A stretch of DNA of 64,000 bases from assembly GCA_964618975.1 (NCBI GenBank), contig CAZUDI010000015.1, positions 412-64,411 on the forward strand. Direction: 5' to 3'. Below the pieces are notes generated by a model. It was not told the origin of the DNA, searched no databases, and saw only the letters and a list, made by a program, of their open reading frames with translations. The stretch's first letter is position 1; each line of letters begins with the position of its first letter. A program made the translations under genes and the position numbers. The DNA is from an uncultured Bacteriovoracaceae bacterium. GTDB taxonomy: Bacteria; Desulfobacterota; Desulfomonilia; UBA1062. Shown one piece after another: positions 2,592 to 53,336 of the stretch.

Positions 2592-3575
2592 ATGCTGAAG
2601 AAATACGATAAGTTGAGCCACCAGGTCACCTTCCAGGGCATCTTGAGGGCGCGCAGTGCCCTGCGGCAGTATCTCAAGCCCACCAACCTCATCTATTACT
2701 CCGAGTTGAGCCGGCTCGTCGGGGCCGAGACCTTCGTCAAGCATGAGAATCATCAGCCCACGGGATCCTTCAAGATCCGGGGGGCGGTGAACTTCCTCCA
2801 TGCCCTGCCGAAAGAAGAGGTGGAGAACGGGGTGCTGGTGGCAACCCGCGGCAACCACGGCTTTGCCATGGCCTGGGCGGCGCAGTGGTTCAAGACCCCC
2901 TGCACCGTGGTGGTGCCCGAGCATAACAACCCCGAGACCAACCGCATCATCGAGGGCTGCGGGGCCGAGCTCATCGAGCACGGGCAGGACTTCTACGACG
3001 CCCAGTTCTACTGCGACGAACTGGTCAACGCCGCCGGCTACTACTACGTGGAGCAGGGCAATGAGCCCGAGATTCTCAACGGGCTGGGGACCATGGGGCT
3101 CGAAATCTTCGAGGACCTCCCGGATGTGGATGTGATCATCTGCCCTGTTGGCGGCGGGTCCGGCTGCGCCTCGCTGATCCGCGTGGCCAAGGCCATCAAT
3201 GCCCAGGTGGAGATCATCGGGGTCCAGGCCGAGAAGGCCCCCGCCTTCTACCAGGCCTGGAAACGGGGGGAGTGGTGCGTGTTGGATGAGGCATCCACCC
3301 TCGCCGACGGCCTGGCTGCCCGCAGCGTCTTCCAGCTGCCCTATTTCATCATGAAGGACACCATCGACGATGTGGTGCTGCTCAGCGAGGAGGAGCTCCT
3401 GGAAGGGATCCGCCTGGCGCTGGAGGCGACCCACAACCTGGCCGAGGCGGCCGGGGCGGCGTCCATCATGGCCGCCCTCAAGCTCAGGGAGCGCCTGGCC
3501 GGCAAAAAGGTGGTGCTGGTCATGTCCGGGGGTAACATCGACCGCGAAAACCTTAACCGTGCCCTGAAGCCCTGA
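2592..3575 (+). CDS. PLP-dependent threonine/serine dehydratase family protein
   Basis: ENHQPTGSFKIRGA PLP-lysine motif, TRGNHG, PVGGGSG glycine loop, C-terminal SGGNID. Confidence 0.88.
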   Translation: MLKKYDKLSHQVTFQGILRARSALRQYLKPTNLIYYSELSRLVGAETFVKHENHQPTGSFKIRGAVNFLHALPKEEVENGVLVATRGNHGFAMAWAAQWFKTPCTVVVPEHNNPETNRIIEGCGAELIEHGQDFYDAQFYCDELVNAAGYYYVEQGNEPEILNGLGTMGLEIFEDLPDVDVIICPVGGGSGCASLIRVAKAINAQVEIIGVQAEKAPAFYQAWKRGEWCVLDEASTLADGLAARSVFQLPYFIMKDTIDDVVLLSEEELLEGIRLALEATHNLAEAAGAASIMAALKLRERLAGKKVVLVMSGGNIDRENLNRALKP

Positions 3576-3581
3576 TCCCTG

Positions 3582-4493
3582 CTAGCCCAGATTCTCGGTC
3601 ACGGCGTAGTAGTTTTCCCACTTGGAGTCGATTTGCGCCTGGATGCGCTGAAGCACCTCGTCGTCCAAAAGCCGGAAGCGCCGCTGGGAGCGGTAGTATT
3701 CGCTCACCGGCACAAGCTTGCGCTTCTCGAGGATCTTGCGGGAGGCCCCCGTCAGGTTGAACTGGAAGTTTTCCACCTCGTACAGGTCGAAGACCCCCGT
3801 CTCCACGGCGAGCTTGCCCACCTTGACCGCATAGCGCGGGTCGAAACCCCACCCGGGCGGGCAGGGGATGTGGATGTGGATGTATTTCGTGCCGGGCAGA
3901 TCCTTGGCCTTGATGATCTTGTCATAGAGATCCAGCGGATAGGCGGCCGAGCAGGTGGCCACATAACTGATGCCGTGGGCGGCCAGGATGGCCGGGACGT
4001 TCTTCTTGCGTTGGAGCTTGCCCAGCAGGGGGGTATTGGCGGTGATGGCCCCCTCGGGTGTGGTCCCGGAGCGTTGGACCCCGGTATTCATGTAGCCCTC
4101 GTTGTCGTAGCAGAAGTAGATGAAGTTGTCGCCCCTCTCACAGGCCCCCGAGAGGGCCTGCAGCCCGATATCGCTCGTACCGCCGTCGCCGGCCCAACCC
4201 GCCACGGTGATCCCCTGCCGGCCCCGGGCCTTGAGCGCCCCCAGCAGGCCCGTGGCCGCGGCCGCGGTGGAGGCAAAGGTGACGTTCAGGCAGGGCAGCT
4301 TGGTCGCGGCAATGGGGTAGAGCCCCTGCAGCACGGTCAGGCAGCTCGGCGGCACGACGAGGAGGGTGTTTTTTCCCAGGGCCTTGAGCCCGATACGGTA
4401 GGCAATGGCCAGCGCGCAGCCCGAACAGGCCCGCGTTCCGGGCTGGACGAACTCCTCTTCCGGAAGGCTCAGGATCGTGGTCTTTGCATGCAT
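3582..4493 (-). CDS. porB: 2-oxoacid:ferredoxin oxidoreductase beta subunit (TPP-binding)
   Basis: GTRACSGC, GDGG...YDNEGYMNTGVQRS TPP motif, PCPPGW. Confidence 0.9.
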   Translation of the reverse strand: MHAKTTILSLPEEEFVQPGTRACSGCALAIAYRIGLKALGKNTLLVVPPSCLTVLQGLYPIAATKLPCLNVTFASTAAAATGLLGALKARGRQGITVAGWAGDGGTSDIGLQALSGACERGDNFIYFCYDNEGYMNTGVQRSGTTPEGAITANTPLLGKLQRKKNVPAILAAHGISYVATCSAAYPLDLYDKIIKAKDLPGTKYIHIHIPCPPGWGFDPRYAVKVGKLAVETGVFDLYEVENFQFNLTGASRKILEKRKLVPVSEYYRSQRRFRLLDDEVLQRIQAQIDSKWENYYAVTENLG

Positions 4494-9355: not shown

Positions 9356-11596
9356 GTGGAGCTCAAAGGCCGGATTTTCTCTGGAACACTGCTCGTCCTG
9401 GTGGTTCTCGCTGCCCTTGTCACCCTGGATGCCTATCGCCAGGTGCAAAAGATCGACGACGGATCACTCTGGCATCTGCCGTCACGGATCTACGGCCGGC
9501 CGTGTACCATAACGGCGGGAACGGATATCGAGCTGCTTGGACTGACAGGGAGGCTGGAACGACTGCGCTACCGCGAGGTGGCAACGGTGAGCACCCCCGG
9601 GGAATATGCGAGCTCTCCTTCCGGGATTACGATCTACCTGAGGGGCTTCCGTGAGGCCGGGCGTCAGGAGCCCCCCCGTAAGGTGAGTCTGGCCCTCGAT
9701 GGGGCGCTGGTGCGCGGCGTGACCGAGTTGGAGACGCGTGCCGAGCTGGCGCACATCGCGCTGGAGCCCGAATGTCTGGCCGAGGTCTTCGGCGAAGGCT
9801 ATGAGGATCGCAGCATCGTGCAATTGAGCGATTGTCCCGCCGCGCTGATCGATGCCATCATTGCCACCGAGGACCGGCGTTTCTATGCGCACCGCGGCAT
9901 CGACCTGCGCTCCGTGATACGGGCGGCGCTGGTGAATCTGAGATACGGCGGGATCCGCGAGGGGGCCTCCACCATAACCCAGCAACTCATCAAGAATCTG
10001 TTCCTTTCCAGTCAGCGGACCTTCTGGAGGAAGTGCCGCGAGGTATGGATCACGCTCGTCATGGAGGCGGTCTATTCCAAGGACGAGATCCTCGAGCTCT
10101 ACCTCAACGAGGTCTATATGGGGCAGTGGGGCCATGCCGGGATCTACGGCGTGGGCCGGGCGGCACGGCTGTTTTTCGACAAGGAGCCCTCCGCGCTCAG
10201 CCTGGAGGAGGCGGCGCTTCTGGCGGGTATCATCCGAGCCCCGAACCGCTATTCCCCATATGCCTTTCCGGCCCGGGCCCTGGCGCGGCGCAACACCGTG
10301 CTGGAACTCATGCGTGACGAGGGCAAGCTGGACGCTCCGGCCGTTGAGCTGGCCCTGAAATCCGAGATGGCGGTCGTGCCTCTGCCCCCCCGACAGAGAC
10401 TGGCTCCCTATTTCATTGACCATATCCTGGAGACCATCCGGGAGCGTTATCCCGTGAGCCTGCTGGCACGGGGGGGGTACCACATCTCGACCACGATCGA
10501 TCCGCACATTCAGCGGGTGGTGGAGGACCGTCTCGCCCGGGGCATCGAGCACCTTTCGCGCGGCGCTGTCCCTGCGCTGCAGGGGGCGGCGGTAGTCTGC
10601 GATCCCTCCACCGGTGAGATCCTGGCCATGGCGGGGGGCAGGGACTACGCGGAAAGCCAGTTCAACCGGGCCACGAATATCACGCGGCATGTGGGCTCGC
10701 TGATCAAACCCGTGATCTACTACACCGCCCTGCGCCGGGGCTATACCCTGGCGAGTCTGGTCCAGGATGACCCACTCAGCCTGGAGATGGGGGATGGTTC
10801 GCCGTGGCGCCCGGAGAACTATGACCATATGAGCCACGGCGAGATCATGCTGGTGGACGCCCTGATACATTCCTACAATCTCGCCACGGTCAGGCTGGGG
10901 CGGGCGCTCGGGAGCGGCAACGTGATCTTTGAGATGCAGCAGATGCTGCCCTCTCTGGCGGTAGCGGACAACCCGTCCGTCCTCCTGGGGGCCGTACCGT
11001 GCTCCCCGCTCGATGTGGCCATGCTCTACTGCGGCCTTGCCAACGGCGGATGCCGGGTGCGCCCCCGGGTGTACAGCGCGATCGAGAACGAGCACGGAAC
11101 CGTGGTGGAGCAATGTGCCCCTTCCGAGCCCGTGAGGGTGTGGGACGCCTCGGTGGTCTATCTGATGAATGCGGCGCTCAAAGATGTGCTCGTGACAGGG
11201 ACCGCCCGCGCGGCACACCTCTACGGCATGCCCGCCAACGTCTGCGGCAAGACGGGCACCACCGACGAGGAGCGCGACGCGTGGTTCGTGGGCTTCACCC
11301 CCGAGCTGGTGGTGGCGGTCTGGATCGGAAACGACGAGTACCTGCCGGTGGGTCTGACCGGGGCCACCGGCGCGCTGCCCGTGGCCTCCATGATCATGGG
11401 TGCGATCACGCGGCCGGGGCCAGTGTCTCCCCCGGACGACATCGTGCTGTGCGCCGTGGACCCCGCCAACGGCAAGCGGGCCTCGCGCTGGAACAGCAAC
11501 CGGCGCACGTTGCCCTTTATCCGGGGCACCGAACCCACCGAGGTCTCGCGCGAGGACCTTCCGGGGATCCTGAAATTCTTCCGGTCCGTCTTTTAG
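9356..11596 (+). CDS. mrcB: bifunctional transglycosylase/transpeptidase PBP1B
   Basis: N-terminal TM, UB2H-like region, EDRRFY.H.GID, GASTITQQLIKN, SLIKP, GKTGTT. Confidence 0.9.
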   Translation: MELKGRIFSGTLLVLVVLAALVTLDAYRQVQKIDDGSLWHLPSRIYGRPCTITAGTDIELLGLTGRLERLRYREVATVSTPGEYASSPSGITIYLRGFREAGRQEPPRKVSLALDGALVRGVTELETRAELAHIALEPECLAEVFGEGYEDRSIVQLSDCPAALIDAIIATEDRRFYAHRGIDLRSVIRAALVNLRYGGIREGASTITQQLIKNLFLSSQRTFWRKCREVWITLVMEAVYSKDEILELYLNEVYMGQWGHAGIYGVGRAARLFFDKEPSALSLEEAALLAGIIRAPNRYSPYAFPARALARRNTVLELMRDEGKLDAPAVELALKSEMAVVPLPPRQRLAPYFIDHILETIRERYPVSLLARGGYHISTTIDPHIQRVVEDRLARGIEHLSRGAVPALQGAAVVCDPSTGEILAMAGGRDYAESQFNRATNITRHVGSLIKPVIYYTALRRGYTLASLVQDDPLSLEMGDGSPWRPENYDHMSHGEIMLVDALIHSYNLATVRLGRALGSGNVIFEMQQMLPSLAVADNPSVLLGAVPCSPLDVAMLYCGLANGGCRVRPRVYSAIENEHGTVVEQCAPSEPVRVWDASVVYLMNAALKDVLVTGTARAAHLYGMPANVCGKTGTTDEERDAWFVGFTPELVVAVWIGNDEYLPVGLTGATGALPVASMIMGAITRPGPVSPPDDIVLCAVDPANGKRASRWNSNRRTLPFIRGTEPTEVSREDLPGILKFFRSVF

Positions 11597-13880: not shown

Positions 13881-13913
13881 TCTGTGGCGATTCCGCAAGG
13901 GGAGGAAGTCACG

Positions 13914-15065
13914 ATGGTAGCTCACCGGATGAAGGCGTATGCGCAGAGTTCTTCGTGGATTCGCCGCATGTTCGAGGAAGGCACCCGACTGAAGGCCATT
14001 CACGGCCCGGACAGGGTCTATGATTTCAGCCTGGGGAACCCGGATGTTCCCCCCCCGCCGCAGGTGCTCGAGGCCATGGCCGCCCACGCACGGGGCATGT
14101 CCCACGGCTATATGGCCAACGCCGGCTATCCCGAGGTGCGCGCCCAGGTCGCCGCGCACGCCTCCAAGATGTACGGGGTGGATCTTGCGGCCGAGGATAT
14201 CATCATGACCTGTGGCGCTGGCGGTGGTCTGAATGTCGTGCTCAAGGCCATCCTGGATCCCGGAGATGAGGTCGTGGCCATCGCCCCCTATTTCGTGGAG
14301 TACGGTTTCTATGCCGAGAATCATGGGGGGCGCCTGGTGGCGGTGGCCTGTGACGAGACCTTTCTGCCGGATGCCGAGCGCATTCGCAAGGCCCTGACCG
14401 CGCGCACCAAGGCCCTGATCATCAATTCACCCAACAACCCCAGTGGCCGGGTCTATCCCCGGGGGATCCTGGAGAACCTGGCACACGTGCTGGCAGACCA
14501 TCCCCAGGTGCTGCTCATCTCCGACGAGCCCTATCGGGGGATCGTCTACGACGGCCACGAGGTCCCCTCGGTGCTGGCGGTTTCTCCCAACACGGTCGTG
14601 GTGACCTCGGCCTCGAAGGAGCTCTCCCTGGCCGGACAGCGCATCGGCTATATCGCCCTGAGCCCTCAGGTCTCCGAGCGCGAGGAACTGCTCGGCGCCA
14701 TGGTCCTGGCCACGCGCATCCTGGGCTTCGTCAATGCCCCGGCGCTCATGCAGCGCGTCTATGCCGAATGCCTGAACGAGCGTGTGGATGTGGCCCTCTA
14801 TGCCCGGCGCCGCGATGCCCTGCGCGCGATTTTCGACGCGTCGGGCCTGTCCTATGCACCCCCGGAAGGCACCTTCTACCTCTTCGTGAAATCCCCGCTA
14901 CAAGACGAGACGGTCTTCTGCCAGGAATTACTCAAGGAGCGGATCCTGGCTGTGCCAGGGCGGGGGTTCGGCTATCCGGGCTATGTGCGTTTCGCCTACT
15001 GCGTCGATGAGCGTACGATCACGGGCGCCTCCCCGGGGATAGGCCGTGTGATGGAACGCCTGTGA
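13914..15065 (+). CDS. class I/II PLP aminotransferase (aspartate aminotransferase-like)
   Basis: FSLGNPD, INSPNNPSG, SDEPY, SASKELSLAGQRIGY. GGAGG SD before ATG 13914. Confidence 0.92.
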   Translation: MVAHRMKAYAQSSSWIRRMFEEGTRLKAIHGPDRVYDFSLGNPDVPPPPQVLEAMAAHARGMSHGYMANAGYPEVRAQVAAHASKMYGVDLAAEDIIMTCGAGGGLNVVLKAILDPGDEVVAIAPYFVEYGFYAENHGGRLVAVACDETFLPDAERIRKALTARTKALIINSPNNPSGRVYPRGILENLAHVLADHPQVLLISDEPYRGIVYDGHEVPSVLAVSPNTVVVTSASKELSLAGQRIGYIALSPQVSEREELLGAMVLATRILGFVNAPALMQRVYAECLNERVDVALYARRRDALRAIFDASGLSYAPPEGTFYLFVKSPLQDETVFCQELLKERILAVPGRGFGYPGYVRFAYCVDERTITGASPGIGRVMERL

Positions 15066-28104: not shown

Positions 28105-29169
28105 TCACCCCCCGAAGAGCGTCTGCAGATGCAGCAGTAGTTCGGAATCACCCTCTGCCCGGCAGATCCCCGCAGCGAAGAGTGCCTGGCCGTCGGTCTT
28201 GCCGGTGGTGAGATCCATCCAGTCCTCAAAGGGGGTCCATATCGTCAGGTCGGCCAGAGGTGCAGCTCCTGCGGATGGGGTGCACGTCCCGTCCGCGATC
28301 CTGAAGTGGCAGGTTCCCTCCTGAGGGCCGCTGAAGACGAACTGGATGACCGCCTTGATCCCGCGGGAGGCCTGCGCCTTGAAGCCCAGGCGCATGATCA
28401 GCATGAAGGTCGCGATGCTGTCGGGCCGGGGGACTAGCCTCTGCTGGGTGAATTCGGCCGGGGTCACACCCGCATCGATGCAGGTCTTCCAGAAGAGGTT
28501 GCCCGCCTCCCTGAGCACGTGGCTGTCCGTGATGGGCTGGGTGATGTGCTCAAGGGTCTTGGGTGTGATGCGGAGGTCGCGCACCAGTTCTCCACCGGCC
28601 TGTACGGTGGCCTGCAGGATATCTTCGGCGACGTCTCCAAAGGCGGCCTGATCGAGCATCTCGGCCGCCGGGCGATAGATCTCCGCAATGAGTCCGGGCC
28701 CGAACAGGTAGCGGACATGGGATGAGAGCTGGTCGAAGATCGACATCTCGGGGAATCCGGCCACGGAGAGCATCACGACCGCCGGATGCCGCTCCCGGAG
28801 CGGATGGCGGGTCACGCCGTCCTTCTGCTCCATGAAAGGCTGGACAACGGGAAGCGTGCGCTCGATGAAGGCCTTCAGTGTCGCGTTCATGGTGAAGTGG
28901 TACAGGGGGGTGGCGTATATCACGATGTCAGACTTGAGCAACCGGGGGTAGAGTTCATTGGACATGTCGTCCCGGTGGATGCATCTGCCCGGGGTCTTCG
29001 TCCAGCAGGTATAGCAGCCGATGCAGTTTTTCACGGTCTTCTTTGACAGATTCACGGTGTGCACCTCGGCCCCGGCCTTGCGCATACCTTCGACCAGATG
29101 CGAGAGCATCATCCCTGTCTTGCTGACGCCTTTCTGACGGGGGCTGGAATTGATGGCGAGTACCTGCAT
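28105..29169 (-). CDS. iron-sulfur flavoprotein/flavodoxin-like protein fused to a C-terminal SCP2 domain
   Basis: INSSPR, CIGCYTCWTKTPGRC, ATPLY; C-terminal AVIQFVFSG...ADLTI...DW.DL..GK.DGQALF..G...EGD. Confidence 0.8.
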   Translation of the reverse strand: MQVLAINSSPRQKGVSKTGMMLSHLVEGMRKAGAEVHTVNLSKKTVKNCIGCYTCWTKTPGRCIHRDDMSNELYPRLLKSDIVIYATPLYHFTMNATLKAFIERTLPVVQPFMEQKDGVTRHPLRERHPAVVMLSVAGFPEMSIFDQLSSHVRYLFGPGLIAEIYRPAAEMLDQAAFGDVAEDILQATVQAGGELVRDLRITPKTLEHITQPITDSHVLREAGNLFWKTCIDAGVTPAEFTQQRLVPRPDSIATFMLIMRLGFKAQASRGIKAVIQFVFSGPQEGTCHFRIADGTCTPSAGAAPLADLTIWTPFEDWMDLTTGKTDGQALFAAGICRAEGDSELLLHLQTLFGG

Positions 29170-29242
29170 CACATCCCTCCTTGTCCATGATTTGATCTGG
29201 GCTGCTGCCCGCCGGCGTTCTCAGGGGCATGTCAGCCCCGCT

Positions 29243-42635: not shown

Positions 42636-42698
42636 GCCTGAGGGTCGAGTTCCCCCCTGCGTGCAGCGGCATGGCGGGTCCAGGGTTTATCCTGGGGG
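42636..42698 (+). repeat. ~70-bp dispersed intergenic repeat, copy C
   Basis: gcctgagggtcgagttcccccctgcgtgcagcgg...gggtccagggtttatcctggggg aligns with copy B. Confidence 0.75.
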
Positions 42699-42747
42699 AT
42701 TGAAGGGCACACGCTTGCGGCAGGTGCCCTTACAGAAAGGCGGCATC

Positions 42748-43539
42748 TCAGCCTCGCAATTCACGATAGGCACGGCTCAAGGCCAGGAATTGGGCGACAT
42801 CGAGTTCCTGCGGGCGGCACCTCAGGTCCACACCCCCCCTGAGGGCGAGCTCCTCCAGGTGTTCCGCGTCCATGCCGGGCAGGCTTCCCAGGGTGTTACG
42901 CAGCATCTTGCGCCTCTGGCCGAAGGTGTGGTGGATCACGGAAATGAAGAGCCTGCGTTCGGTGGGGGGTACGGGGTGATCATGCGGCATCAGATGGATG
43001 ATCATGGAGTCCACCTTGGGCCGTGGCCGGAAGTGCTCGGGCCCGATCACAAAGCCCGGCCGGGCGATGAAACTACCGGCGAGGATGACGCTGAGGCCCG
43101 AGTAGGCCCGCTCTCGCGGATGGGCGCAGATGCGTTCCCCGACCTCCCTTTGCACCATGACGACGATCGAGGAAAAATGTGCGGCATGCTCCGCCAGGGC
43201 GAGCAGAATCGGGGTGGCGATGTTATAGGGGAGGTTGGCCACGATCTTCGAGCCCGGAGGTGTCAGTTCGGCAGGGTTGAGCTTCAGGATGTCGCCGGTG
43301 ATTACGGTGACGTCTGCATGAAGCGCGAAGGCGCGAGCCAGATCGGCGGCCAGCCGCTCGTCCTTTTCCACCGCCACGACCCGGGCGCCGCGCCGGGCCA
43401 GCACCTTTGTGAGGGCGCCCCTGCCGGGCCCAATCTCGAGTACCCGCTCGTCGCTGGTCACCGCGGCCAGGGCGACGATGCGCTCCACTACATGCGTATC
43501 GCTCAGGAAATTTTGGCCCAGGGATCTTTTTGCATGCAT
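42748..43539 (-). CDS. rsmA: 16S rRNA m6,2A dimethyltransferase
   Basis: KRSLGQNFL, LEIGPGRG, VANLPYNI, MVQREV, PKVDS, QRRKML. Confidence 0.96.
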   Translation of the reverse strand: MHAKRSLGQNFLSDTHVVERIVALAAVTSDERVLEIGPGRGALTKVLARRGARVVAVEKDERLAADLARAFALHADVTVITGDILKLNPAELTPPGSKIVANLPYNIATPILLALAEHAAHFSSIVVMVQREVGERICAHPRERAYSGLSVILAGSFIARPGFVIGPEHFRPRPKVDSMIIHLMPHDHPVPPTERRLFISVIHHTFGQRRKMLRNTLGSLPGMDAEHLEELALRGGVDLRCRPQELDVAQFLALSRAYRELRG

Positions 43540-43785
43540 GTCGCCTGCCCCCTCCTTGACTCTGCCGCCCCTTGTTCAGGCATCTCCCCCTTGCGTGGTC
43601 CATCAAGAGAGGATTGCACGAATCTGCCAGAGGGTGCGAGCCGCTGTCAATGCCAGAACGACGCTCGAGACGTTTCAGGCAGGATGCAAACCGTAACACG
43701 CGGCTTTACTCATGGGGCAAAGGCGGTTATGCTCGGCTGTAGAACGGGCTGCCGCCAAGGAGGCTCGTTGGGAAGGAGGGGCGGC

Positions 43786-44940
43786 GTGAACTTCGCATTC
43801 TCCACCGTCGGGCGCATCGTCTTCGGCGCCGGGGAGCTGCGGTGCATACCCGCGGAGGTGCGTTCCCGCGGAAAGCGCGTGCTGGTGCTCACAGGGGCCA
43901 ACATCGAACGCACGGTCGGGCTGAGGGAGGCCCTCAAGGGGTGCGGGGTCGCGGTCACGCTCTTCCAGGTCGCCCATGAGCCCACCACCTCCCTGGTGCT
44001 GGAGGGGGTGGAACTGGCACGGCAGGCACACTGCGACTGCCTCCTGGCGGTGGGCGGCGGCAGTGTCCTGGATGCCGGCAAGGCCATTGCGGCGCTTGTA
44101 ACCAATGCCGGCGAGCTCATGGACTATCTCGAGGTCATCGGCCGGGCGCGGCCACTTACCTGCGCCCCGATGCCGCTGATCGCCGTGCCAACGACCGCGG
44201 GCACGGGCGCCGAGGTGACGCGCAACGCCGTGCTCTTCTCCCCCGAGCACGGGCTCAAGGTGAGTCTCCGATCGGACCTGCTGCTTCCCTGGCTGGCGGT
44301 GGTGGACCCCGAAATGGGGCGATCTTTGCCCCCCGGGGTGACGATGGCCACGGGCCTGGATGCCCTGACGCAACTTCTGGAGGCCTTTGTCTCGCGTCGG
44401 GCGAACCCCCTGACGGACGGCCTCTGCCGTGAGGGGTTGGCGCGGGTGGGAGATTGCCTGCCGCGGGCCTGTGAGCGCGGTGACGACCTGCAGGCACGGG
44501 AGGGCATGGCCCTGGCGAGCCTTTTGAGCGGCATGGCCCTGGCCAATGCCGGGCTGGGCGCGGTGCACGGGCTGGCGGCGCCGCTGGGCGGAATCACCGC
44601 GGCCCCGCACGGGATGCTCTGCGCCTGCATGTTGCCGTACGTCATGGAGGCCAATGTGCTGGCCCTTAGGCGGTCGGACCCCAACCACCCGGTGCTGGAC
44701 CGCTACGGGGAGGCGGCGCGGCTCATCACCGGCCATGCAGATGCCACCTGCGACAATGCGGCGGCCTGGGTCAGGCGCCTGAGTTCGCAGTACGGCACGC
44801 CTTCCCTGGCGGGGTTGGGCCTGCAGCCGCTCCAGATACCGGACCTGGTGCTGAAGGCCCAGGGCGCGAGCAGCATGCGAGGCAACCCCATCGAGCTGAG
44901 CGACAGGGAACTGGAGGGTATTCTGAAGTCGGCCCTCTAA
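43786..44940 (+). CDS. iron-containing alcohol dehydrogenase
   Basis: GTG after AAGGAGG; GGGSVLDAGK, PTTAGTGAE, DALTQ, LGAVHGLA, HG. The track's 375-aa N-terminal extension is antisense shadow of rsmA. Confidence 0.92.
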   Translation: MNFAFSTVGRIVFGAGELRCIPAEVRSRGKRVLVLTGANIERTVGLREALKGCGVAVTLFQVAHEPTTSLVLEGVELARQAHCDCLLAVGGGSVLDAGKAIAALVTNAGELMDYLEVIGRARPLTCAPMPLIAVPTTAGTGAEVTRNAVLFSPEHGLKVSLRSDLLLPWLAVVDPEMGRSLPPGVTMATGLDALTQLLEAFVSRRANPLTDGLCREGLARVGDCLPRACERGDDLQAREGMALASLLSGMALANAGLGAVHGLAAPLGGITAAPHGMLCACMLPYVMEANVLALRRSDPNHPVLDRYGEAARLITGHADATCDNAAAWVRRLSSQYGTPSLAGLGLQPLQIPDLVLKAQGASSMRGNPIELSDRELEGILKSAL

Positions 44941-46946: not shown

Positions 46947-47597
46947 ATGCCGAGGAAGTACCACAAAGAGACCTTCGACAAGATCTCTGGTGAGAAGCGT
47001 GAGCGTCTGCTCGCCGTGGCCACCAGCGAATTTGCCGCCAAGGGCTTCGCCGGCACCAACATCAATCATATCGCTTCCCGGGCCCGCATCAGCATCGGCT
47101 CTCTCTACCGCTATTTTGCCTCCAAGGAGGATCTCTTCCTGACCGTGCTCGATCAGGGTTATCAGGCCTTGGACCGGATCCTGTGGGAAATCATCGCGGC
47201 CGAGGGGGACCTTTTCGAGAAGATCGAGAAGATCCTGCGGGCGGCGCAGTCCTATTCCCGCGATCATCCCGCGATCATCCAGATTTACCTGGGATCCACC
47301 GGGGAGGAGGGTCTCGCGCATCTCTCCAAGGAGCTCTCGCAGAAGATCGAGAGCATCGCTGCTAACTATTACCGCTCCCTCATCGCCTCCGCGCGTACCA
47401 CCGGAATGGTAGCGCCTGACGTGGACGAAAGGGTTGCGGCCTTTTGCCTTGACAGCCTTTTTCTCATCCTCCAATTTTCGTATGCCTCCTCCTACTACAG
47501 GGAACGTATCAAAATCTTTGCCGGAGAGAATGCCCTGGACGAGGATGAACACATCATCGCCGGCATGATGCAGTTCATCCGGCGGGCGCTTTCCTAA
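46947..47597 (+). CDS. TetR/AcrR family regulator
   Basis: EFAAKGFAGTNINHIASRARISIGSLYRYFASKEDLF HTH. Confidence 0.93.
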   Translation: MPRKYHKETFDKISGEKRERLLAVATSEFAAKGFAGTNINHIASRARISIGSLYRYFASKEDLFLTVLDQGYQALDRILWEIIAAEGDLFEKIEKILRAAQSYSRDHPAIIQIYLGSTGEEGLAHLSKELSQKIESIAANYYRSLIASARTTGMVAPDVDERVAAFCLDSLFLILQFSYASSYYRERIKIFAGENALDEDEHIIAGMMQFIRRALS

Positions 47598-47928
47598 AGG
47601 CGCACAAGATACCATCCATCTCCTTGCGACAAGCGCTCCCTGCAGGAGGGTTATGCGCGGGATGCACCAGCAGAGGTTCGTTCCCCATGGGGCGTCATCC
47701 GACAGGCATGCCGGTCGAGGTGTATCGTCACGGATATGTGCAGTGCGACTTCCATCACCCCAACCAGGAATGAGCAACTGCTCGCACAAGACCGTCCTTG
47801 AGAGGGGCTGGGCCGGTGCAGTGAGAGGACCAGAGACACCAACGTAACTTTGAAGAGTATTTAGCTGCCCAATTAAACAGCTATAAAAGCATGAGCTATA
47901 GAAAGTGACCGATAACTGAGAAATATTC

Positions 47929-47981
47929 TTGCAAACAAGGATGGGATTGGTGTAATTGATTAAATGAGTGAGTGATCGCTC
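47929..47981 (+). promoter_or_regulatory. putative sigma70 promoter with downstream operator-like palindrome
   Basis: TTGCAA (47929-47934), 16 nt, TGTAAT (47951-47956, TGn-extended); imperfect palindrome GAGTGATCGCTC (47970-47981). Confidence 0.45.
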
Positions 47982-48003
47982 CATAACGAGACAGGAGGGT
48001 CGT

Positions 48004-48699
48004 ATGCACACATATCGGACATGTCAGCAGCAGGTGCTTGAATGCACCCATCGACTGACCCGGCAGGGGATTTTTGTGGGTACCGGCGGCAATGTGTCGG
48101 TACGGATTCCGGATGAAGAACTCATTGCCGTGACCCCCTCAGGCAGGGATTACCTGGGGCTGGAGACGGATGATATCTGTGTGGTGGATTATTCCGGGCG
48201 TCTGGTTCGCGGGGAGTTGCGTCCGTCCATCGAGACCGGGATGCACATCGCGATCTACCAGCATCGGCTCGATGTGGGGGCCGTGGTCCACACCCATCAG
48301 GTGGGTGCCAGTACCTTTGCCGTGATGAATATGCCGATCCCCGCCTTGTTCGATGAACAGGCCGCCAGTCTCGGCCGCGAGGTGGCACTCGTGCCCTATG
48401 GACTCAGCGGCAGCGCCGAGCTTCTGACCAACGTGAGTGCGGTGATCAGCAATCAGTGCAACGCCTTTATCCTGCAGAATCACGGCGTGCTGCTGCTGGG
48501 CGAGACGCTGGAGGAGGCCGAACGCCATGTGAGTCTGCTGGAGAAGACGGCCATGGTGTACTACCGGGCCCTGACCTCGGGGCATCCCGTCTCCGCCCTG
48601 CCGGAGGACATTGCCAACATGCTCATGGAGATTCTCAAGTCCAAACAGGCCGGCGTAATCGAGCGTAGGGCAGCGTGCTCCCCAAGCCGTGAAGCCTGA
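48004..48699 (+). CDS. class II aldolase/adducin family (fuculose-1-phosphate aldolase-like)
   Basis: GTGGNVS, VTPSG, PSIE..MH, HTH, LQNHG zinc ligands; AGGAGG SD. Confidence 0.9.
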   Translation: MHTYRTCQQQVLECTHRLTRQGIFVGTGGNVSVRIPDEELIAVTPSGRDYLGLETDDICVVDYSGRLVRGELRPSIETGMHIAIYQHRLDVGAVVHTHQVGASTFAVMNMPIPALFDEQAASLGREVALVPYGLSGSAELLTNVSAVISNQCNAFILQNHGVLLLGETLEEAERHVSLLEKTAMVYYRALTSGHPVSALPEDIANMLMEILKSKQAGVIERRAACSPSREA

Positions 48700-48720
48700 T
48701 ACCAACGAGGAGGACAGACG

Positions 48721-50160
48721 ATGAACGACTATGCCATTTCCCATTGGCCGGATACGCACGATCTTCTGGAACGGCTCTATGACCTGGCCAACCATCAACC
48801 CCTGCACCCCATCCGCCGCGACAAGATGGAGGCCTACCTCGCCTACTTCGAGGAGCACTGCCAGGGGTCCAAGCGCCTGACCGCGGAGGCCGCGACCTAT
48901 ATCCCGGGTGGTGTGCAGCACAATCTCGCCTTCAACTATCCCTTTCCCCTGGCCATCGCCCAAGCCCAGGGGGCCTATCTCTGGGACGTGGACGGTAACC
49001 GCTACATCGACTTCCTCCAGGCGGGTGGGCCGACGCTTCTGGGCAGCAATTACGAACCGGTGCAGGAACAGGTCATCCAACTCATCCGCGAGTGCAGCCC
49101 GGTCACCGGGCTCTTTCATGAGTATGAGCTCAAGCTCGCGCGGCTGATCTGTGAGCATATGCCCTCCGTGGAGATGTTCCGCATGCTCGCCAGCGGCACC
49201 GAGTCGGTTATGGCAGCCCTCCGCGCGGCACGCTGTTTCACGGACAAGCGCAAGGTGATCAAGGTCGGAGGCGGCTACCACGGCTGGAGCGACCAGATGG
49301 TCTTCGGCATGCGCATCCCCGGATTAGGGGCGCTGGATGCGCACGGCATCCCTGCGGGCAGTTATGAGCACACCCAGGAGGTTTTCCCCAACGATCTCGA
49401 TGCGCTGGAAGGATTGCTCGCGGCCAATGAGGCCGAGGGCGGCACGGCGGCCGTGATTCTGGAACCGCTGGGGCCCGAAAGCGGCACGCGGCCCGTTTTG
49501 CGCGATTACAACCAGCAGGTGCGCGGGCTCTGCGATACCTACGGCACCCTGCTCATCTTCGACGAGGTCGTCACCGGCTTCCGAGTGGGCCTCGGAGGCG
49601 CCCAGGGTTTCTTCAAGGTGCGGCCCGACCTCACGATCTTCGGCAAGTGTGTGGCCGGCGGCTATCCGGCGGCCGGCGGCGTGGGCGGCCGCCGGGATGT
49701 CATGGAATGTTTTGCTGCCGGCATCCAGGGGCTGAAGAAACGCGCCATGGTGGGCGGGACCCTCTCGGCCAATCCCCTGAGCTGTGCGGCGGGTTACTTC
49801 ACCATCAAGGCCATCGAGGAGACACAGGCCCACCTCAAGGCCGGCCGGGCCGGCGACCGCCTCACCCAGGGACTACAGGAGATCATTGCGCGCCGGCGAC
49901 TGCCCTTCATCGCCTTTAATCATGGATCGATCTGCCACCTCGAGACCTCGGCGGCCATGCTCATGGACATCAACAACCCCAAGATCTTCTCCGAGGTGGG
50001 CGAGCGCAAACATCTCATGGAGGAGGTGGGGGCGGCCCTCATGGCCGAAGGCGTAGTGACGCTGGCCGGCAGCCGGCTGTATACGAGCATGGCAGACAGC
50101 GATGATGTCATCGATGACGCGCTTGAGCGCATTGACCGTGTGATGGCGCATATTGAATGA
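48721..50160 (+). CDS. class III PLP aminotransferase, GSA-aminomutase-like but probably not HemL
   Basis: YLWDVDGNRYIDF, GTES.MAA.R.AR, GGYHG, LIFDEVVTGFR, FGK Schiff-base Lys, GGTLSANPL; GGVQHN where HemL has GGVNSP. Confidence 0.88.
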   Translation: MNDYAISHWPDTHDLLERLYDLANHQPLHPIRRDKMEAYLAYFEEHCQGSKRLTAEAATYIPGGVQHNLAFNYPFPLAIAQAQGAYLWDVDGNRYIDFLQAGGPTLLGSNYEPVQEQVIQLIRECSPVTGLFHEYELKLARLICEHMPSVEMFRMLASGTESVMAALRAARCFTDKRKVIKVGGGYHGWSDQMVFGMRIPGLGALDAHGIPAGSYEHTQEVFPNDLDALEGLLAANEAEGGTAAVILEPLGPESGTRPVLRDYNQQVRGLCDTYGTLLIFDEVVTGFRVGLGGAQGFFKVRPDLTIFGKCVAGGYPAAGGVGGRRDVMECFAAGIQGLKKRAMVGGTLSANPLSCAAGYFTIKAIEETQAHLKAGRAGDRLTQGLQEIIARRRLPFIAFNHGSICHLETSAAMLMDINNPKIFSEVGERKHLMEEVGAALMAEGVVTLAGSRLYTSMADSDDVIDDALERIDRVMAHIE

Positions 50161-50311
50161 CCCTCAGTGGACTAGGGCCCTTTTTCGATTATGGAGTAAC
50201 CGGCTTCAGGGGGTTTGCGGGGGGCATTCGGGTTTTTGCACGCTGTTTGCGCCCCATCTCTGGGGGTGGGGCGCATGGAGGTAAGGGGGTAATCTTGAGG
50301 GGAAAGACGCG

Positions 50312-51964
50312 GTGGATGACGTGAATGCGGGAAAGGACGCCGGGTATGTGTTGGCCTACGATGTGGGGACCACCGGCACCAAGACCTGTCTCTACGGTAT
50401 CGGGGAGGCCATCGGGCTGGTGGACTCGGCCATCGGGGAGTACCCGCTGTACCTGAGTGAGGAGGGGGGCGCCGAGCAGGACGTGGAGGACTGGTGGCGG
50501 GCGATCGTCAAGGGCACCCGGGATGTGTTGTCAAGAACCGGGATCGCTGCGGGCGCAGTCAAGGGGATTTCCCTGTGCTGCCAGATGCAGGGCTCGATCA
50601 TGGTGGATGCTCAAGGCCGGGCCTTGCGCAGGGCCATGGGCTACCTGGACGGTCGGGCCACCAAACAGTTTGCCCGTGGTTTCCAGCACGGGCTGTGGCG
50701 TATCAGCGGCTGCAACGCCTTCAAACTCCTCAACTGGCTGCGCATCACCGGCGGTTGCCCGGCCACGTCCAAGGATCCGGTGTGGAAATACCTGTGGGTC
50801 AAGGAGCACGAGCCCGAGGTGTATGCCGCCACCCACAAGTGGCTCGACGTCAAGGATTATCTGGTCCTGCGCAGCACCGGCTGCTACGGCATGACCCAGG
50901 ACTCGGCGCATGTCACCTTTCTCTACGACACCCGTCCCGGCCGGCTCGGCTGGCATGTGGGGTTGTGCCGCACACTGGGGGTGGACCCGGACCACCTGCC
51001 GCCGGTCATCGAATCCACGCACAGGGTGGGGGGGCTCACGGCCCAGGCGGCCTCTGATCTGGGGCTCATAGAGGGCACCCCGGTCTTCGGCGGCGGCGGC
51101 GACGTGTCGCTCATCTCCATCGGTGCGGGTTGCGTGGGTCTGGGGGACACCCATATCTATGTGGGCACCTCGGGATGGGTGAGTGCCTGTGTGGACAAGC
51201 GTATGGTGGATGTCTCCAACTTCATGGCCTCGATCCTCGGTGCCATTCCGGACTATTACAATTTTGTCGCCGAGCAGGAGACCTCGGGCCTCTGCCTGCA
51301 GTGGGTGAGGGATCACCTGGCGCTGGACGAGATCGGGCTCTACCTGGGCTCCCGGCATATCGTGGACAAGGGCGCGGAGTTTGACAATCTCTACCAGTTT
51401 TTGAACCAGAGCGTGAACGAGACCGAGCCGGGCTCCGGGGGGGTGATTTTTACCCCGTGGCTGCACGGAAACCGCGCGCCGCGGGAGGACCCTTACGCGC
51501 GCGCCATGTTTTTCAACCTCGGGCTGCATACGGGCAAGCGGATGATGATCCGTGCCGTGCTCGAGGGCGTGGCCTATCACAAGCGCTGGATGCTCCAGGC
51601 ACTGGAGAAGAGGGTCACCCCGCAGGAGCGGCTGCGCTTTGTGGGCGGTGGGGCGCATTCGGAGGTGTGGTGTCAGATCATGGCCGATGTAACGGGTCGG
51701 GTCGTCGAGACCACCCCCGAGCCGCAGAATGCGGGCGCCGTGGGCGCGGCCGTGGTTTGCGCGGTAGGGCTTGGGTTGCTGAAAGACTTTTCCCAGGCCA
51801 GGGACCTCATACCTATCAAGGAGACGTATCATCCGCGAGCCAGGTATAAAGAGGTTTATGATCGCAGTTTTACTGTTTTTGAAAGCCTCTACAAGAACAA
51901 TCGGCAGGCCTTTGCCCGCTTGAACAGGCAAGTTGACCCCCCCCGAGCGCCGTGCGTGCCATAA
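50312..51964 (+). CDS. FGGY family carbohydrate kinase (xylulokinase-like)
   Basis: YDVGTTGTK, GAEQD...WW, CQMQG, GGGD, VGTSGW, PWLHGNRAP, RAVLEGVA, VGGGA.S. Confidence 0.92.
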   Translation: MDDVNAGKDAGYVLAYDVGTTGTKTCLYGIGEAIGLVDSAIGEYPLYLSEEGGAEQDVEDWWRAIVKGTRDVLSRTGIAAGAVKGISLCCQMQGSIMVDAQGRALRRAMGYLDGRATKQFARGFQHGLWRISGCNAFKLLNWLRITGGCPATSKDPVWKYLWVKEHEPEVYAATHKWLDVKDYLVLRSTGCYGMTQDSAHVTFLYDTRPGRLGWHVGLCRTLGVDPDHLPPVIESTHRVGGLTAQAASDLGLIEGTPVFGGGGDVSLISIGAGCVGLGDTHIYVGTSGWVSACVDKRMVDVSNFMASILGAIPDYYNFVAEQETSGLCLQWVRDHLALDEIGLYLGSRHIVDKGAEFDNLYQFLNQSVNETEPGSGGVIFTPWLHGNRAPREDPYARAMFFNLGLHTGKRMMIRAVLEGVAYHKRWMLQALEKRVTPQERLRFVGGGAHSEVWCQIMADVTGRVVETTPEPQNAGAVGAAVVCAVGLGLLKDFSQARDLIPIKETYHPRARYKEVYDRSFTVFESLYKNNRQAFARLNRQVDPPRAPCVP

Positions 51965-52103
51965 AGGCGCCGGGATCAGAGACAAACAAGGGGTGTCTTT
52001 TCCCGCCAGAGGTGCTACTATCGCCACAAAGGGGGCCCGACCCCGTCGGCTTGAGATACGCCTTCACCTGCGGGCGCGTACCATTTTCTGAGGAGGGTAT
52101 GCA

Positions 52104-53336
52104 ATGAATCAGGAGCATGTGGTCACAATCTATCCCTACCGGTGGGTCGTATTGATAGTATTCATGCTAGCCAATGCCATGATCCAGGTGCACTGGGTGG
52201 TGTTCGCTCCCATCACCAGTGAGGCCGCCGCCTTCTACGGGGTGACGCCGCTCAAGATTGGCCTGCTCTCCATGGTTTACATGATTGCCTTCATCTTTCT
52301 CTGTATTCCGGCCTCCTATACAATCGACACCTACGGGCTGCGCATCGGGGTCGGGATCGGGGTGGTCCTCACCGGGATCTTCGGCCTGCTCAAGGGACTC
52401 TACCCCACGAACTATACCGCGATCATGATATCCCAGTGCGGACTGGCCGCGGCCCAGCCCTTCATCATGAATGCCATGACCAAGGTCGGTGCCAATTGGT
52501 TCCCCGTTCAGGAGCGTGCCACTGCGGCAGGGATGGCGGCCCTGTCCCAGTACATCGGTATCATCGTGGCCATGGCGGCCACCCCCCTGCTTGTGAAGGC
52601 CTACTCGCTGGAGGGCATGCTCATGATCTACGGGGTGCTCTCGATTATCACCACGGCGGTGTTCCTCGTCTTCATGCGCGAGATGCCCCCGACACCCCCC
52701 TCGGAGGCGACCATGGCCGCACGAATCGCGGTTTTCCCCGGGATAAGGCGTATCTTCACCCATCGCGACATGCTGCTGCTCCTGGTGCTGTTTTTCATCG
52801 GACTGGGCATGTTCAACGCCGTGACCACCTGGATCGAACAGATCCTCGCGCCGCGGGGGCTTAACTCCGAGCAGGCCGGACTGGTGGGAGCGGCCATGAT
52901 GATCGGTGGTATTGTGGGGGCCTGCATCCTGCCGCCTTTGTCCGACAGGCTCAGACAGCGCAAGTCCTTCCTCATCGTGGCCATGGTGGGCATGGCCCCG
53001 GGGCTCGTCGGCATCACCTTCTGCACCAGCTATTATCTCCTGTTGGCGAGCGGCTTCGTCCTGGGCTTCTTCATCATGTCGGCCGGACCCATCGGATTCC
53101 AGTATGGGGCCGAGGTGAGCTACCCCGCCCCGGAATCCACCTCACAGGGCCTCATCCTGCTGGCGGGTCAGATCTCGGGGATCATCTTCATCTTCGGCAT
53201 GGATACCTTCCGGGCCGCCGGCTCGGGCTCCATGACCCCCTTCATGATCGTTTTCATAGCGCTGACCCTCGTGTGTGTCGGTGTTTGCCTCAATCTGAAC
53301 GAATCCTCGCTTATCAAGGAGGCGCACGACGTTTGA
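52104..53336 (+). CDS. MFS transporter
   Basis: YRWVVL start, 12 TMs, IDTYGLR, WFP..ERATA, LSDRL.QRK. Confidence 0.92.
   Translation: MNQEHVVTIYPYRWVVLIVFMLANAMIQVHWVVFAPITSEAAAFYGVTPLKIGLLSMVYMIAFIFLCIPASYTIDTYGLRIGVGIGVVLTGIFGLLKGLYPTNYTAIMISQCGLAAAQPFIMNAMTKVGANWFPVQERATAAGMAALSQYIGIIVAMAATPLLVKAYSLEGMLMIYGVLSIITTAVFLVFMREMPPTPPSEATMAARIAVFPGIRRIFTHRDMLLLLVLFFIGLGMFNAVTTWIEQILAPRGLNSEQAGLVGAAMMIGGIVGACILPPLSDRLRQRKSFLIVAMVGMAPGLVGITFCTSYYLLLASGFVLGFFIMSAGPIGFQYGAEVSYPAPESTSQGLILLAGQISGIIFIFGMDTFRAAGSGSMTPFMIVFIALTLVCVGVCLNLNESSLIKEAHDV

Follow-up and report, generated by a model that had tools for sequence, protein, structure and literature searches.

A TetR-associated cluster of aldolase, class III aminotransferase, FGGY kinase, and FLVCR-type transporter genes as a candidate bacterial route for sphingoid-base catabolism

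INTRODUCTION

Plants, fungi, Bacteroidota, and animal tissues are rich in sphingolipids and their phytosphingosine bases, and sphingoid bases act as antimicrobials and as host signals; little has been described of their disposal by bacteria. In Pseudomonas aeruginosa, a sphingosine-responsive regulon (SphR, SphA, SphBCD, and CerN) combines a neutral ceramidase with putative base-degrading enzymes, its parts being the AraC-type SphR, a porin, the cytochrome c SphB, the flavin oxidoreductase SphC, and the threonine-aldolase-like, pyridoxal phosphate (PLP)-dependent SphD, and the proposed products being glycine and an aldehyde (PMC3900636). Here, we analyze a cluster of five genes—encoding a TetR regulator, a class II aldolase, a class III aminotransferase (AT), an FGGY kinase, and a major facilitator superfamily (MFS) transporter—at positions 46947-53336 of a 64,000-nucleotide (nt) stretch of DNA from an uncultured Bacteriovoracaceae bacterium (GenBank assembly GCA_964618975.1, contig CAZUDI010000015.1, positions 412 to 64,411; hereafter, the window). 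By domain search, none of the SphR, SphB, SphC, and SphD families is present among the cluster genes, which places the cluster outside that regulon.

In eukaryotes, sphingoid bases are handled by a long-chain base (LCB) or sphingosine kinase together with sphingosine-1-phosphate lyase. The scheme that we propose for the cluster resembles this route in that C1 is phosphorylated, a PLP enzyme acts next, and a fatty aldehyde is set free. Unlike the eukaryotic route, however, the cluster encodes a kinase of the FGGY and not the DAG-kinase-like fold, as well as a class III AT and not a member of the SGPL1/Dpl1 family, and it would cut between C3 and C4 to give dihydroxyacetone phosphate (DHAP), whereas the eukaryotic cut falls between C2 and C3 and gives phosphoethanolamine.

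Two sugar-type pathways are also related. Catabolism of L-fucose and L-rhamnose (FucA/RhaD) likewise joins an FGGY kinase to a Zn-dependent class II aldolase that releases DHAP and an aldehyde; the metal-binding residues, Glu73, and the phosphate-site residues of FucA are kept in the aldolase of the cluster, and the predicted intermediate would have the FucA-type (3R,4R) configuration. The differences are that the ketone would come from a transaminated amine and not from an aldose-ketose isomerase, that the substrate would end in a long alkyl chain, that the carrier is of the FLVCR type and not a sugar permease, and that the enzymes lie under the FucA/FucK cut-offs, with Asp in place of FucA Tyr113. 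Methionine salvage and the DHAP shunt (MtnK; the class II aldolase Ald2 or the dehydratase MtnB; the RuBisCO-like enolase MtnW; the HAD phosphatase MtnX) pass through a 1-phospho-2-keto-3,4-diol with a non-polar tail, as would the cluster, and class II aldolase-family, RuBisCO-like, and HAD proteins all occur around the module of aldolase, AT, and kinase genes; unlike in salvage, the kinase is FGGY and not MtnK, the keto group would arise by transamination and not by MtnA isomerization, the RuBisCO-like protein is under the MtnW cut-off, and there is no sulfur or nucleoside context.

Our comparative analysis indicates that the module very likely catabolizes an amino alcohol and that this amino alcohol is more likely than not a sphingoid base. 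We regard as evenly poised the more specific proposal of an operon under TetR control that breaks down a sphingoid LCB, most likely of the 4-hydroxylated phytosphingosine type derived from ceramide.

RESULTS

The gene set recurs across many phyla

All five genes are present as co-oriented open reading frames (ORFs) on the + strand, as an initial annotation of the sequence had described (Table 1); gene starts were taken from the ORF list and from an independent gene caller run on the same sequence. The last four genes are separated by 21, 151, and 139 bp and are preceded by a 406-bp intergenic region. Because the gaps between them are only this long, the aldolase, AT, kinase, and MFS genes probably form a single operon.

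Relatives of the AT were drawn from a one-genome-per-species collection, in which 587 places were found; the neighborhood counts given below refer to the best 80 loci (prefix L), in every one of which the AT is at least 63% identical to that of the window. An aldolase gene lies beside the AT gene in 72 of the 80 loci and a kinase gene in 67, with both present in 62, while an FLVCR-like MFS gene is found in 38 and a TetR gene in 40; no further enzyme is broadly conserved around the AT. The loci include members of Burkholderiales, Acidobacteriota, Actinomycetota, Myxococcota, Bacteroidota, Clostridia, and Leptospira, as well as two Thorarchaeota metagenome-assembled genomes (MAGs), and in one Anaerolineae protein (P0117) aldolase and AT are fused, the kinase gene coming after it. 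The initial annotation had named a lack of co-occurrence across genomes as grounds for refuting its reading; the genes in fact co-occur strongly, with one case of fusion, and the recurrence of the gene set over many phyla is more than chance.

Cultured carriers hold the module on plasmids. More specifically, Burkholderia ambifaria CF3 (plasmid NZ_CP152372) has a TetR gene followed by genes in the order FGGY-aldolase-AT-hypothetical-SDR-aldehyde dehydrogenase (ALDH), with an MFS gene close by, and Butyrivibrio fibrisolvens D1 has the order FGGY-aldolase-GtrA-AT. Duganella sp. SG902, Wukongibacter baidiensis, and Nanhaiella sioensis are further cultured carriers. An ALDH gene, which could serve to handle the aldehyde product, stands 3' of the module in B. 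ambifaria, Duganella, and Acidobacterium and is limited to 4 loci.

Two further features of these loci are recorded here. The Candidatus Thorarchaeota MAGs (L064 and L077) carry an AT of 63-64% identity plus an aldolase on Asgard-binned contigs, reflecting either horizontal transfer or a binning error. In Chloroflexota (L024, L030, L036, L047, and L048), a gene for a D-isomer-specific 2-hydroxyacid dehydrogenase follows the AT gene, and the kinase gene is missing or distant in some.

The aminotransferase is related to HemL but lacks its substrate-binding residues

All three enzymes (AT, aldolase, and kinase) miss every curated NCBIfam cut-off. The AT reaches 179.6 bits against PF00202 (gathering score, 30.5), which places it in class III, and its closest family and structure matches are glutamate-1-semialdehyde aminomutases (GSAM; HemL), at ~35% identity. 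Its Schiff-base Lys (in FGK) and its pyridine-N-binding Asp (in FDEV) align with Lys273 and Asp245 of GSAM. These matches would speak for the AT being a second HemL with unrelated sugar genes beside it. However, the AT scores 274.7 bits against the HemL model TIGR00713, far below its cut-off of 527.3, and 306 bits versus 398 for PRK00062.

GSAM contacts its substrate, glutamate 1-semialdehyde (GSA), through Ser29-Pro30-Val31-Arg32 and Glu406 and has the gating motif YHGH (Synechococcus numbering) (PMC7338781). Alignment with three HemL structures confirmed the GGVQHN reported in the initial annotation where HemL has GGVNSP: the AT reads GGVQHNL-AF for GGVNSPVRAF, with a gap where the Arg stands. 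The segment matching Glu406 is deleted or replaced (LAGSRLYTS), and the gating motif is YHGW. The longer N terminus, which had also been pointed out, amounts to ~45 additional residues relative to HemL. The score and the lost GSA-binding residues rule out HemL identity, and given in addition the conserved linkage to aldolase and kinase genes and no heme genes nearby, we see practically no chance that the AT serves as a second HemL.

A 2,1-aminomutase step on an amino sugar, put forward earlier as an alternative, was rejected on the same score and on the missing Ser29-Pro30-Val31-Arg32 and Glu406. The Arg of the GSR motif, almost invariant across the family, probably occupies the site at which class III transaminases bind the keto-acid carboxylate; a true transaminase is favored over a mutase on this ground. 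Invariant motifs of the AT family are IPGGVQHNLAFNYPFP, YHGWSDQM, and TLAGSRxYTSMAD. With HemL and GSAM-like transaminases (beta-Phe AT, D-phenylglycine AT, GntE, and FumI), the window AT shares the fold and the PLP residues; it differs in lacking the GSA-binding residues and in having the 45-residue N-terminal extension and the family-specific motifs. The aminopentol AT FumI (PDB 6hbs), which deaminates a sphinganine-like aminopentol, is a distant relative (81 bits). We propose that the window AT would act at C2 of the (phosphorylated) base, where it would turn the amine into a ketone.

Homologs of the AT number in the thousands; among the top 120, which come from phyla such as Spirochaetota, Desulfobacterota, and Chloroflexota, identity is 67-81%, and the proteins are annotated with generic names or as "glutamate-1-semialdehyde aminomutase." The degree of AT conservation is unusual for a catabolic enzyme, with at least 63% identity over at least 10 phyla, whereas the aldolase (31-55%) and the kinase (30-67%) diverge far more.

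Ceramidase and lipid-carrier genes adjoin the module

Four of the 80 loci (L013, L042, L061, and L068, from Spirochaetota, Myxococcota, and Leptospirales) have a neutral/alkaline ceramidase gene (PF04734, E 1e-152) next to the module, where a rough estimate gives ~0.02 chance adjacencies per 80 loci. In the reverse direction, 35 metagenomic ceramidase loci had flanks of 5 kb or more, and the AT and kinase module was present in 7 of them, the AT being 75% identical to that of the window in L093/L094, 63% in L104, and diverged (46%) in L097/L099/L107/L110. In addition, SCP2 lipid-transfer genes stand between module genes in L017, L022, L031, L042, L061, and L090/L091. The module is thus linked in genomes both to ceramide hydrolysis and to lipid-carrier genes.

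Genes for phospholipase A1 (L003), alkylsulfatase (L007), HpnA-like SDR (L013 and L083), and Aas-like acyltransferase (L088) are further lipid-related neighbors, as is a GH5/sulfatase/GH38 set in L090. Variants without an aldolase (L002, L003, L083, and L172) carry an Exo_endo_phos (EEP) gene, whose sole solved-structure matches are sphingomyelinases at E ~1e-3, a hint at most.

Several ceramidase loci have other recurrent genes. A DUF2147 gene precedes two tandem neutral ceramidase genes in L097 (7238-11977) and a single one in L107 (9350-11980); DUF2147 is also found near the module on the B. ambifaria plasmid (L081, 234-665). A gene for an Lgt-like membrane protein (PF01790) lies directly 3' of TetR-regulated ceramidase genes (L109, 12047-13688; L114, 3592-5071; L120, 12011-12805), followed in L109 and L114 by one for an Rce1-like CAAX protease (PF02517).

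A TetR family and its putative operator connect module and ceramidase genes

The TetR family is small, with 153 proteins at E<=1e-30. Orthologs of 52-64% identity adjoin the AT/kinase module in L003 and L172, neutral ceramidase genes in L109, L114, and L120, and an operon of SCP2-like, AT, and transketolase genes in L173-L176. Short operators were sought with a palindrome scan. The putative operator consensus TGAGTGA-N4-TCACTCA, written out as TGAGTGAGTACTCACTCA, has a match just upstream of the window aldolase gene (Table 1) that is the sole one with at most two mismatches in the 64-kb window, where 0.11 would be expected by chance and far fewer in that 400-bp spacer. With 0-2 mismatches, the palindrome precedes ceramidase genes in seven loci (L109, L112, L113, L114, L120, L134, and L164), an SCP2-like gene in L109, and occurs in the TetR-flanking intergenic regions of L172-L175. 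The putative operator thus lies next to TetR orthologs (L109, L114, L120, and L172-L175) and in the window, whose TetR protein has a PF00440 helix-turn-helix domain. The consensus is not universal, since the locus with the closest TetR ortholog (L003, 64% identity) has at 9810-9831, before the AT gene, the perfect palindrome ACGGTGAATAGTTATTCACCGT, which is not of the TGAGTGA type.

The initial annotation had placed a promoter with an operator-like palindrome before the aldolase gene. No sigma-70 consensus promoter was found there by a simple scan, and a terminator scan was likewise unhelpful; the palindrome part held, in that two are present (Table 1). The upstream one, TAGCTG-N10-CAGCTA, has no conserved counterpart at the related loci that were compared, and the TGAGTGA-type site is the better supported.

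The proposed cleavage enzyme can be replaced

RuBisCO-like proteins take the place of the aldolase, with the kinase kept, in L040, L069, L097 (704-2047), L099, and L110, and both proteins are found in L005 and L107 (RuBisCO-like, 2818-4161). The nearest model of the RuBisCO-like protein is the 2,3-diketo-5-methylthiopentyl-1-phosphate enolase MtnW (324 bits versus a cut-off of 409). A second type of operon (Table 1) encodes an SCP2-like protein (253 aa), a class III AT (416 aa) only 27-29% identical to that of the window, a split transketolase (N and C parts), and a 258-aa protein without a Pfam match; it has no kinase gene and shares the same TetR type and operator. In L109 and L120, the TetR gene is flanked by this operon and a ceramidase gene, and in L058 the operon stands directly 3' of a window-type module. 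Cultured bacteria with the transketolase variant are Desulfoluna spongiiphila and Vallitalea.

The substrates of class II aldolases and of RuBisCO-like proteins are 2-keto-1-phosphates, whereas a transketolase donor requires a free C1 hydroxyl beside the 2-keto group. Kinase presence follows this division: it tracks the aldolase or RuBisCO-like enzymes and is lost with transketolase. Such a pattern would be expected if the AT made a 1-hydroxy-2-keto-3-hydroxy "ketose" from a 2-amino-1,3-diol, and the replacements are consistent with a ketose-like intermediate. The transketolase operon may be a route for bases without a 4-hydroxyl, with the caveat that keto-sphinganine is 3R and canonical transketolase donors are 3S.

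These replacements also bear on a different assignment, in which the cluster would be an analog of the sphingosine-1-phosphate-lyase route: the kinase would make the base 1-phosphate, the PLP enzyme would cut C2-C3 to give fatty aldehyde and phosphoethanolamine, and the aldolase would be accessory. The pairing of a kinase with a PLP enzyme resembles eukaryotic LCB kinase with Dpl1/SGPL1, and close relatives (L002, L003, and L083) have AT and kinase genes without an aldolase. Yet the aldolase is the most constant partner of the AT and once fused to it, the AT keeps an Arg at the probable carboxylate site, and exchange of the aldolase for a RuBisCO-like protein or transketolase points to a 2-keto intermediate; moreover, no enzyme of the class III aminotransferase fold is known to catalyze a lyase reaction of this kind. 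We therefore consider a lyase-type reaction very improbable.

The window aldolase itself is FucA-like yet not FucA. Its best NCBIfam score is 143 bits versus 251 (PRK06557), and it remains below the FucA models (PRK06833, 131 versus 264 bits; TIGR01086, 111 versus 400 bits). It keeps the E. coli FucA residues N29, T43 (as Ser), G44, S71, E73, H92, H94, and H155; in FucA, His92, His94, and His155 are the Zn ligands, Asn29, Thr43, Gly44, and Ser71 form the phosphate site, and Tyr113 is the proton relay to the aldehyde oxygen. The initial statement that the catalytic motifs of the cluster are intact holds for these metal and phosphate residues, for the AT Lys (FGK) and Asp (DEV), and for both FGGY domains, with the qualification that FucA Tyr113 is Asp in the aldolase, within a family-conserved FDEQ motif. 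We propose that the enzyme would split a 2-oxo-1-phosphate into DHAP and an aldehyde.

The replacement of Tyr113 also fits a sphingoid-base pathway in which the aldolase-family protein is an MtnB-like dehydratase or an AraD-like epimerase acting on the 2-oxo-1-phosphate and, as methionine salvage does, the pathway leaves the carbon chain to enzymes whose genes lie outside the cluster. The top NCBIfam match is a subfamily named ribulose-5-phosphate 4-epimerase; the aldolase and the RuBisCO-like protein occur together in L005 and L107, and HAD hydrolases follow the MFS gene at several loci, mirroring MtnB, MtnW, and MtnX; and several loci have two aldolase paralogs. On the other side, a dehydratase or epimerase would leave the pathway incomplete because aldolase, AT, and kinase are the sole conserved enzymes in 62 of the 80 loci. 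The similarity to FucA is full-length, whereas MtnB models cover only the N-terminal 100 residues, and many carriers, anaerobes to judge by their taxa, could not carry out the final, oxygen-dependent part of a route of the salvage type. Overall, a dehydratase or epimerase seems to us decidedly unlikely.

A second, highly divergent class II aldolase-like paralog lies beside the AT in L066, L067, L068, L041, L104, L172, and L081 (10438-11085); the Burkholderia copy (L081) has no Pfam match and is annotated as hypothetical.

The transporter points to an amino-alcohol substrate

The best solved relatives of the MFS protein are the human choline/ethanolamine transporters FLVCR1 and FLVCR2. In FLVCR1, the amine of the ligand makes cation-pi contacts with W125 and Y349 and the hydroxyl is bound by Q214 and Q471, while F348 forms part of the wall of the site (PMC11168923). 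Four of these five residues (W125, Q214, F348, and Q471) are kept in the window protein; unlike FLVCR1 and FLVCR2, it is bacterial, and Tyr349 is Asn, with loss of one cation-pi partner. Because four of the ligand residues are kept, the substrate should bear an amino-alcohol head group, and the protein would be an FLVCR-type carrier for such groups. The kinase is XylB/LsrK-like and below the cut-offs of all named FGGY models (XylB, 281 versus 380 bits; gluconokinase, 219 versus 649; LsrK, 165 versus 528); its proposed role is phosphorylation of the C1 hydroxyl. Among the best 80 loci, the kinases of the module fall into two sequence types.

The same enzyme logic could serve a small water-soluble substrate: a 2-amino-tetritol or -pentitol, serinol, or ethanolamine-derived glycolaldehyde condensed with DHAP, with the lipid genes only supplying head groups. 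The closeness of the MFS protein to FLVCR1/FLVCR2 with its ligand residues kept, the usual preference of FGGY kinases and FucA-like aldolases for small sugars, the EEP phosphodiesterase-like and HAD phosphatase genes that at some loci could free ethanolamine-type head groups, and the absence of a lipid gene near most loci all agree with it. Such a substrate leaves unexplained, however, the linkage to ceramidase seen in both search directions, since ceramidase frees the LCB and not the head group, as well as the SCP2 genes within the operon and the loss of the kinase exactly where transketolase substitutes for the aldolase. In the ethanolamine version, the kinase would have no substrate unless a phosphatase were always there, and the HAD gene is present in only ~1/10 of the loci; nor is any 2-amino-tetritol or -pentitol known to be abundant in nature. 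A small soluble substrate thus appears unlikely to us, if still worth keeping in view. For the candidate named first in the initial annotation, a soluble amino-sugar alcohol, we found no specific support, whereas the phytosphingosine-type substrate, there offered as speculation, is now the best supported by ceramidase, SCP2, and the common TetR protein with its operator.

Proposed pathway

A sphingoid base would be handled as follows. The FLVCR-type MFS protein would import the amino alcohol, and the FGGY kinase would phosphorylate its C1 hydroxyl. The class III AT would then transfer the C2 amino group to a keto acid, leaving a 1-phospho-2-oxo-3,4-diol, a "lipid ketose-1-phosphate" analogous to L-fuculose-1-phosphate or methylthioribulose-1-phosphate. 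Finally, the class II aldolase would cut between C3 and C4, releasing DHAP and a fatty aldehyde with three carbons fewer than the base, so that a C18 base would give pentadecanal. TetR would sit on the palindrome just 5' of the aldolase gene and presumably be released by the base. We place the kinase first because the aldolase-AT fusion suggests that the AT hands its product straight to the aldolase, and the base should be of the phytosphingosine type because aldol cleavage requires the 4-hydroxyl. By our own Cahn-Ingold-Prelog derivation, 2-oxo-D-ribo-phytosphingosine-1-phosphate is (3R,4R); this is the configuration of L-fuculose-1-phosphate, which FucA-type aldolases make and cleave. The core of the earlier reading—import, conversion of amine to ketone, phosphorylation, and sugar-type cleavage of a 2-amino-1,3,4-triol—best fits the comparative data. 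The complete kinase-AT-aldolase scheme giving DHAP and fatty aldehyde has, in our judgment, at best an even chance of being correct in every step.

Aldolase and transaminase reactions are reversible, and HAD or EEP phosphatases at some loci could complete a synthesis; the cluster might accordingly run in the direction of biosynthesis or salvage, the aldolase joining DHAP to an aldehyde, the AT aminating the product to an amino-polyol or sphingoid-like base, and the MFS protein exporting it. In that direction, however, the kinase would be purposeless, yet it is found in 67 of the 80 loci; the module is linked to a hydrolase (ceramidase), a repressor, and an importer-like MFS protein; and no acyl-reducing enzyme is conserved nearby as an aldehyde source. 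A biosynthetic role is hardly plausible on these grounds.

Surroundings of the cluster in the window

The cluster has no heme context, as had been stated: its flanks encode acetyl-CoA synthetase, a SatP-like protein, an S8 peptidase, KsgA, an iron-containing alcohol dehydrogenase (Fe-ADH), EamA, and TsaD. The Fe-ADH is a possible sink for the aldehyde product. It is not conserved beside the module in the other module loci compared, so its membership is doubtful, and neither Fe-ADH nor EamA is claimed as a part of the system. A listed 759-aa ORF at 42661-44940 is an artifact, a long open frame in GC-rich DNA, the true gene being Fe-ADH from ~43786; KsgA is encoded at 42748-43539 on the opposite strand to Fe-ADH.

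Lipid-related genes elsewhere in the window had been cited in favor of a lipid substrate. A thiolase gene and an SCP2 fusion do exist; the support that they lend is weak. The fusion protein (28105-29172, - strand) joins an NADPH-dependent FMN reductase/flavodoxin-like domain to a C-terminal SCP2 lipid-binding domain and has no NCBIfam match; no TGAGTGA-type operator was found near its gene. A class I/II aminotransferase (13884-15065), considered as a serine palmitoyltransferase, was rejected as an ordinary PRK06836-type aminotransferase.

Table 1. Positions of the cluster genes, associated sites, and transketolase operons (window coordinates unless a locus is named)
Feature	Position	Strand	Matches and remarks
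TetR regulator	46947-47597	+	PF00440, E 7e-15; probably the sensor of the pathway substrate (proposed)
Class II aldolase	48004-48699 (gene-caller start; ORF opens at 47968)	+	PF00596, E 2e-44
Class III AT	48721-50160	+	PF00202, E 1e-52
FGGY kinase	50312-51964	+	PF00370 and PF02782
MFS transporter, FLVCR-type	52104-53336	+	PF07690; FLVCR1/FLVCR2 relatives, E 4e-42
Putative TetR operator, TGAGTGAGTGATCGCTCC	47965-47982		Consensus TGAGTGA-N4-TCACTCA; 22 nt 5' of the aldolase ATG
Palindrome TAGCTG-N10-CAGCTA	47862-47883		A+T-rich stretch 5' of the aldolase gene; possibly the one meant in the initial annotation
Fe-ADH	43786-44940	+	PF00465 and PF25137; 2 kb upstream of the cluster
Transketolase operon	L173 1-8000; L174 1850-7725; L175 2776-7554; L176 2784-7591		
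Transketolase operon	L120 3045-7918; L109 16062-17932; L058 17890-21429		

DISCUSSION

Several points weigh against a sphingoid-base operon and have to be set beside the evidence for it. No ceramidase gene was found among the genes of the window, and the window operator has two mismatches to the consensus, both in the right arm. A ceramidase, SCP2, or EEP gene is present in just 9 of the 80 loci, and the majority of loci, above all those of Anaerolineae, have the core genes without a lipid-related neighbor. In the absence of the FucA Tyr113 equivalent, the aldolase may be an epimerase or an MtnB-like dehydratase and not a cleaving enzyme; the order of kinase and AT is suggested solely by the aldolase-AT fusion; and no FGGY kinase is known to act on a lipid. 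The gene families, their conserved linkage, and the ties to ceramidase, SCP2, TetR, and the operator are observed in the sequences, whereas the substrate, the order of the steps, and the products are inferred. Finally, the solved FLVCR relatives transport small soluble amino alcohols (PMC11168923).

Neither this gene set nor a matching bacterial route for sphingoid bases was found in the full-text literature searched, where most subscription journals were not covered, in line with the initial annotation, whose author knew of none with this gene set. The only other bacterial proposal that we found is the unrelated and unproven SphBCD scheme of Pseudomonas (PMC3900636), and the pathway proposed here is probably new as a bacterial route for sphingoid bases.

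More broadly, the comparative data may reflect a widespread bacterial, and possibly archaeal, breakdown of LCBs as if they were sugars, in which the AT makes the ketone, three interchangeable modules (FGGY kinase with class II aldolase, as in the window; FGGY kinase with RuBisCO-like protein; or split transketolase without a kinase) carry out the cleavage, and a TetR regulon with the operator TGAGTGA-N4-TCACTCA also controls ceramidase and SCP2 genes; to us, the case for this general picture and the case against it are equally strong. If true, it would account for the turnover of sphingolipids in habitats from soils, sediments, and digesters to rumen and gut, since several hundred species-level genomes contain the module. 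It would also extend the range of reactions of four families (FGGY, class II aldolase, RuBisCO-like, and transketolase), and it would offer enzymes with which to make or cleave chiral amino-triols, together with a ligand-responsive TetR/operator pair for sensing sphingoid bases. Above all, it would assign a function to a very large family of proteins that are now misannotated as "glutamate-1-semialdehyde aminomutase."

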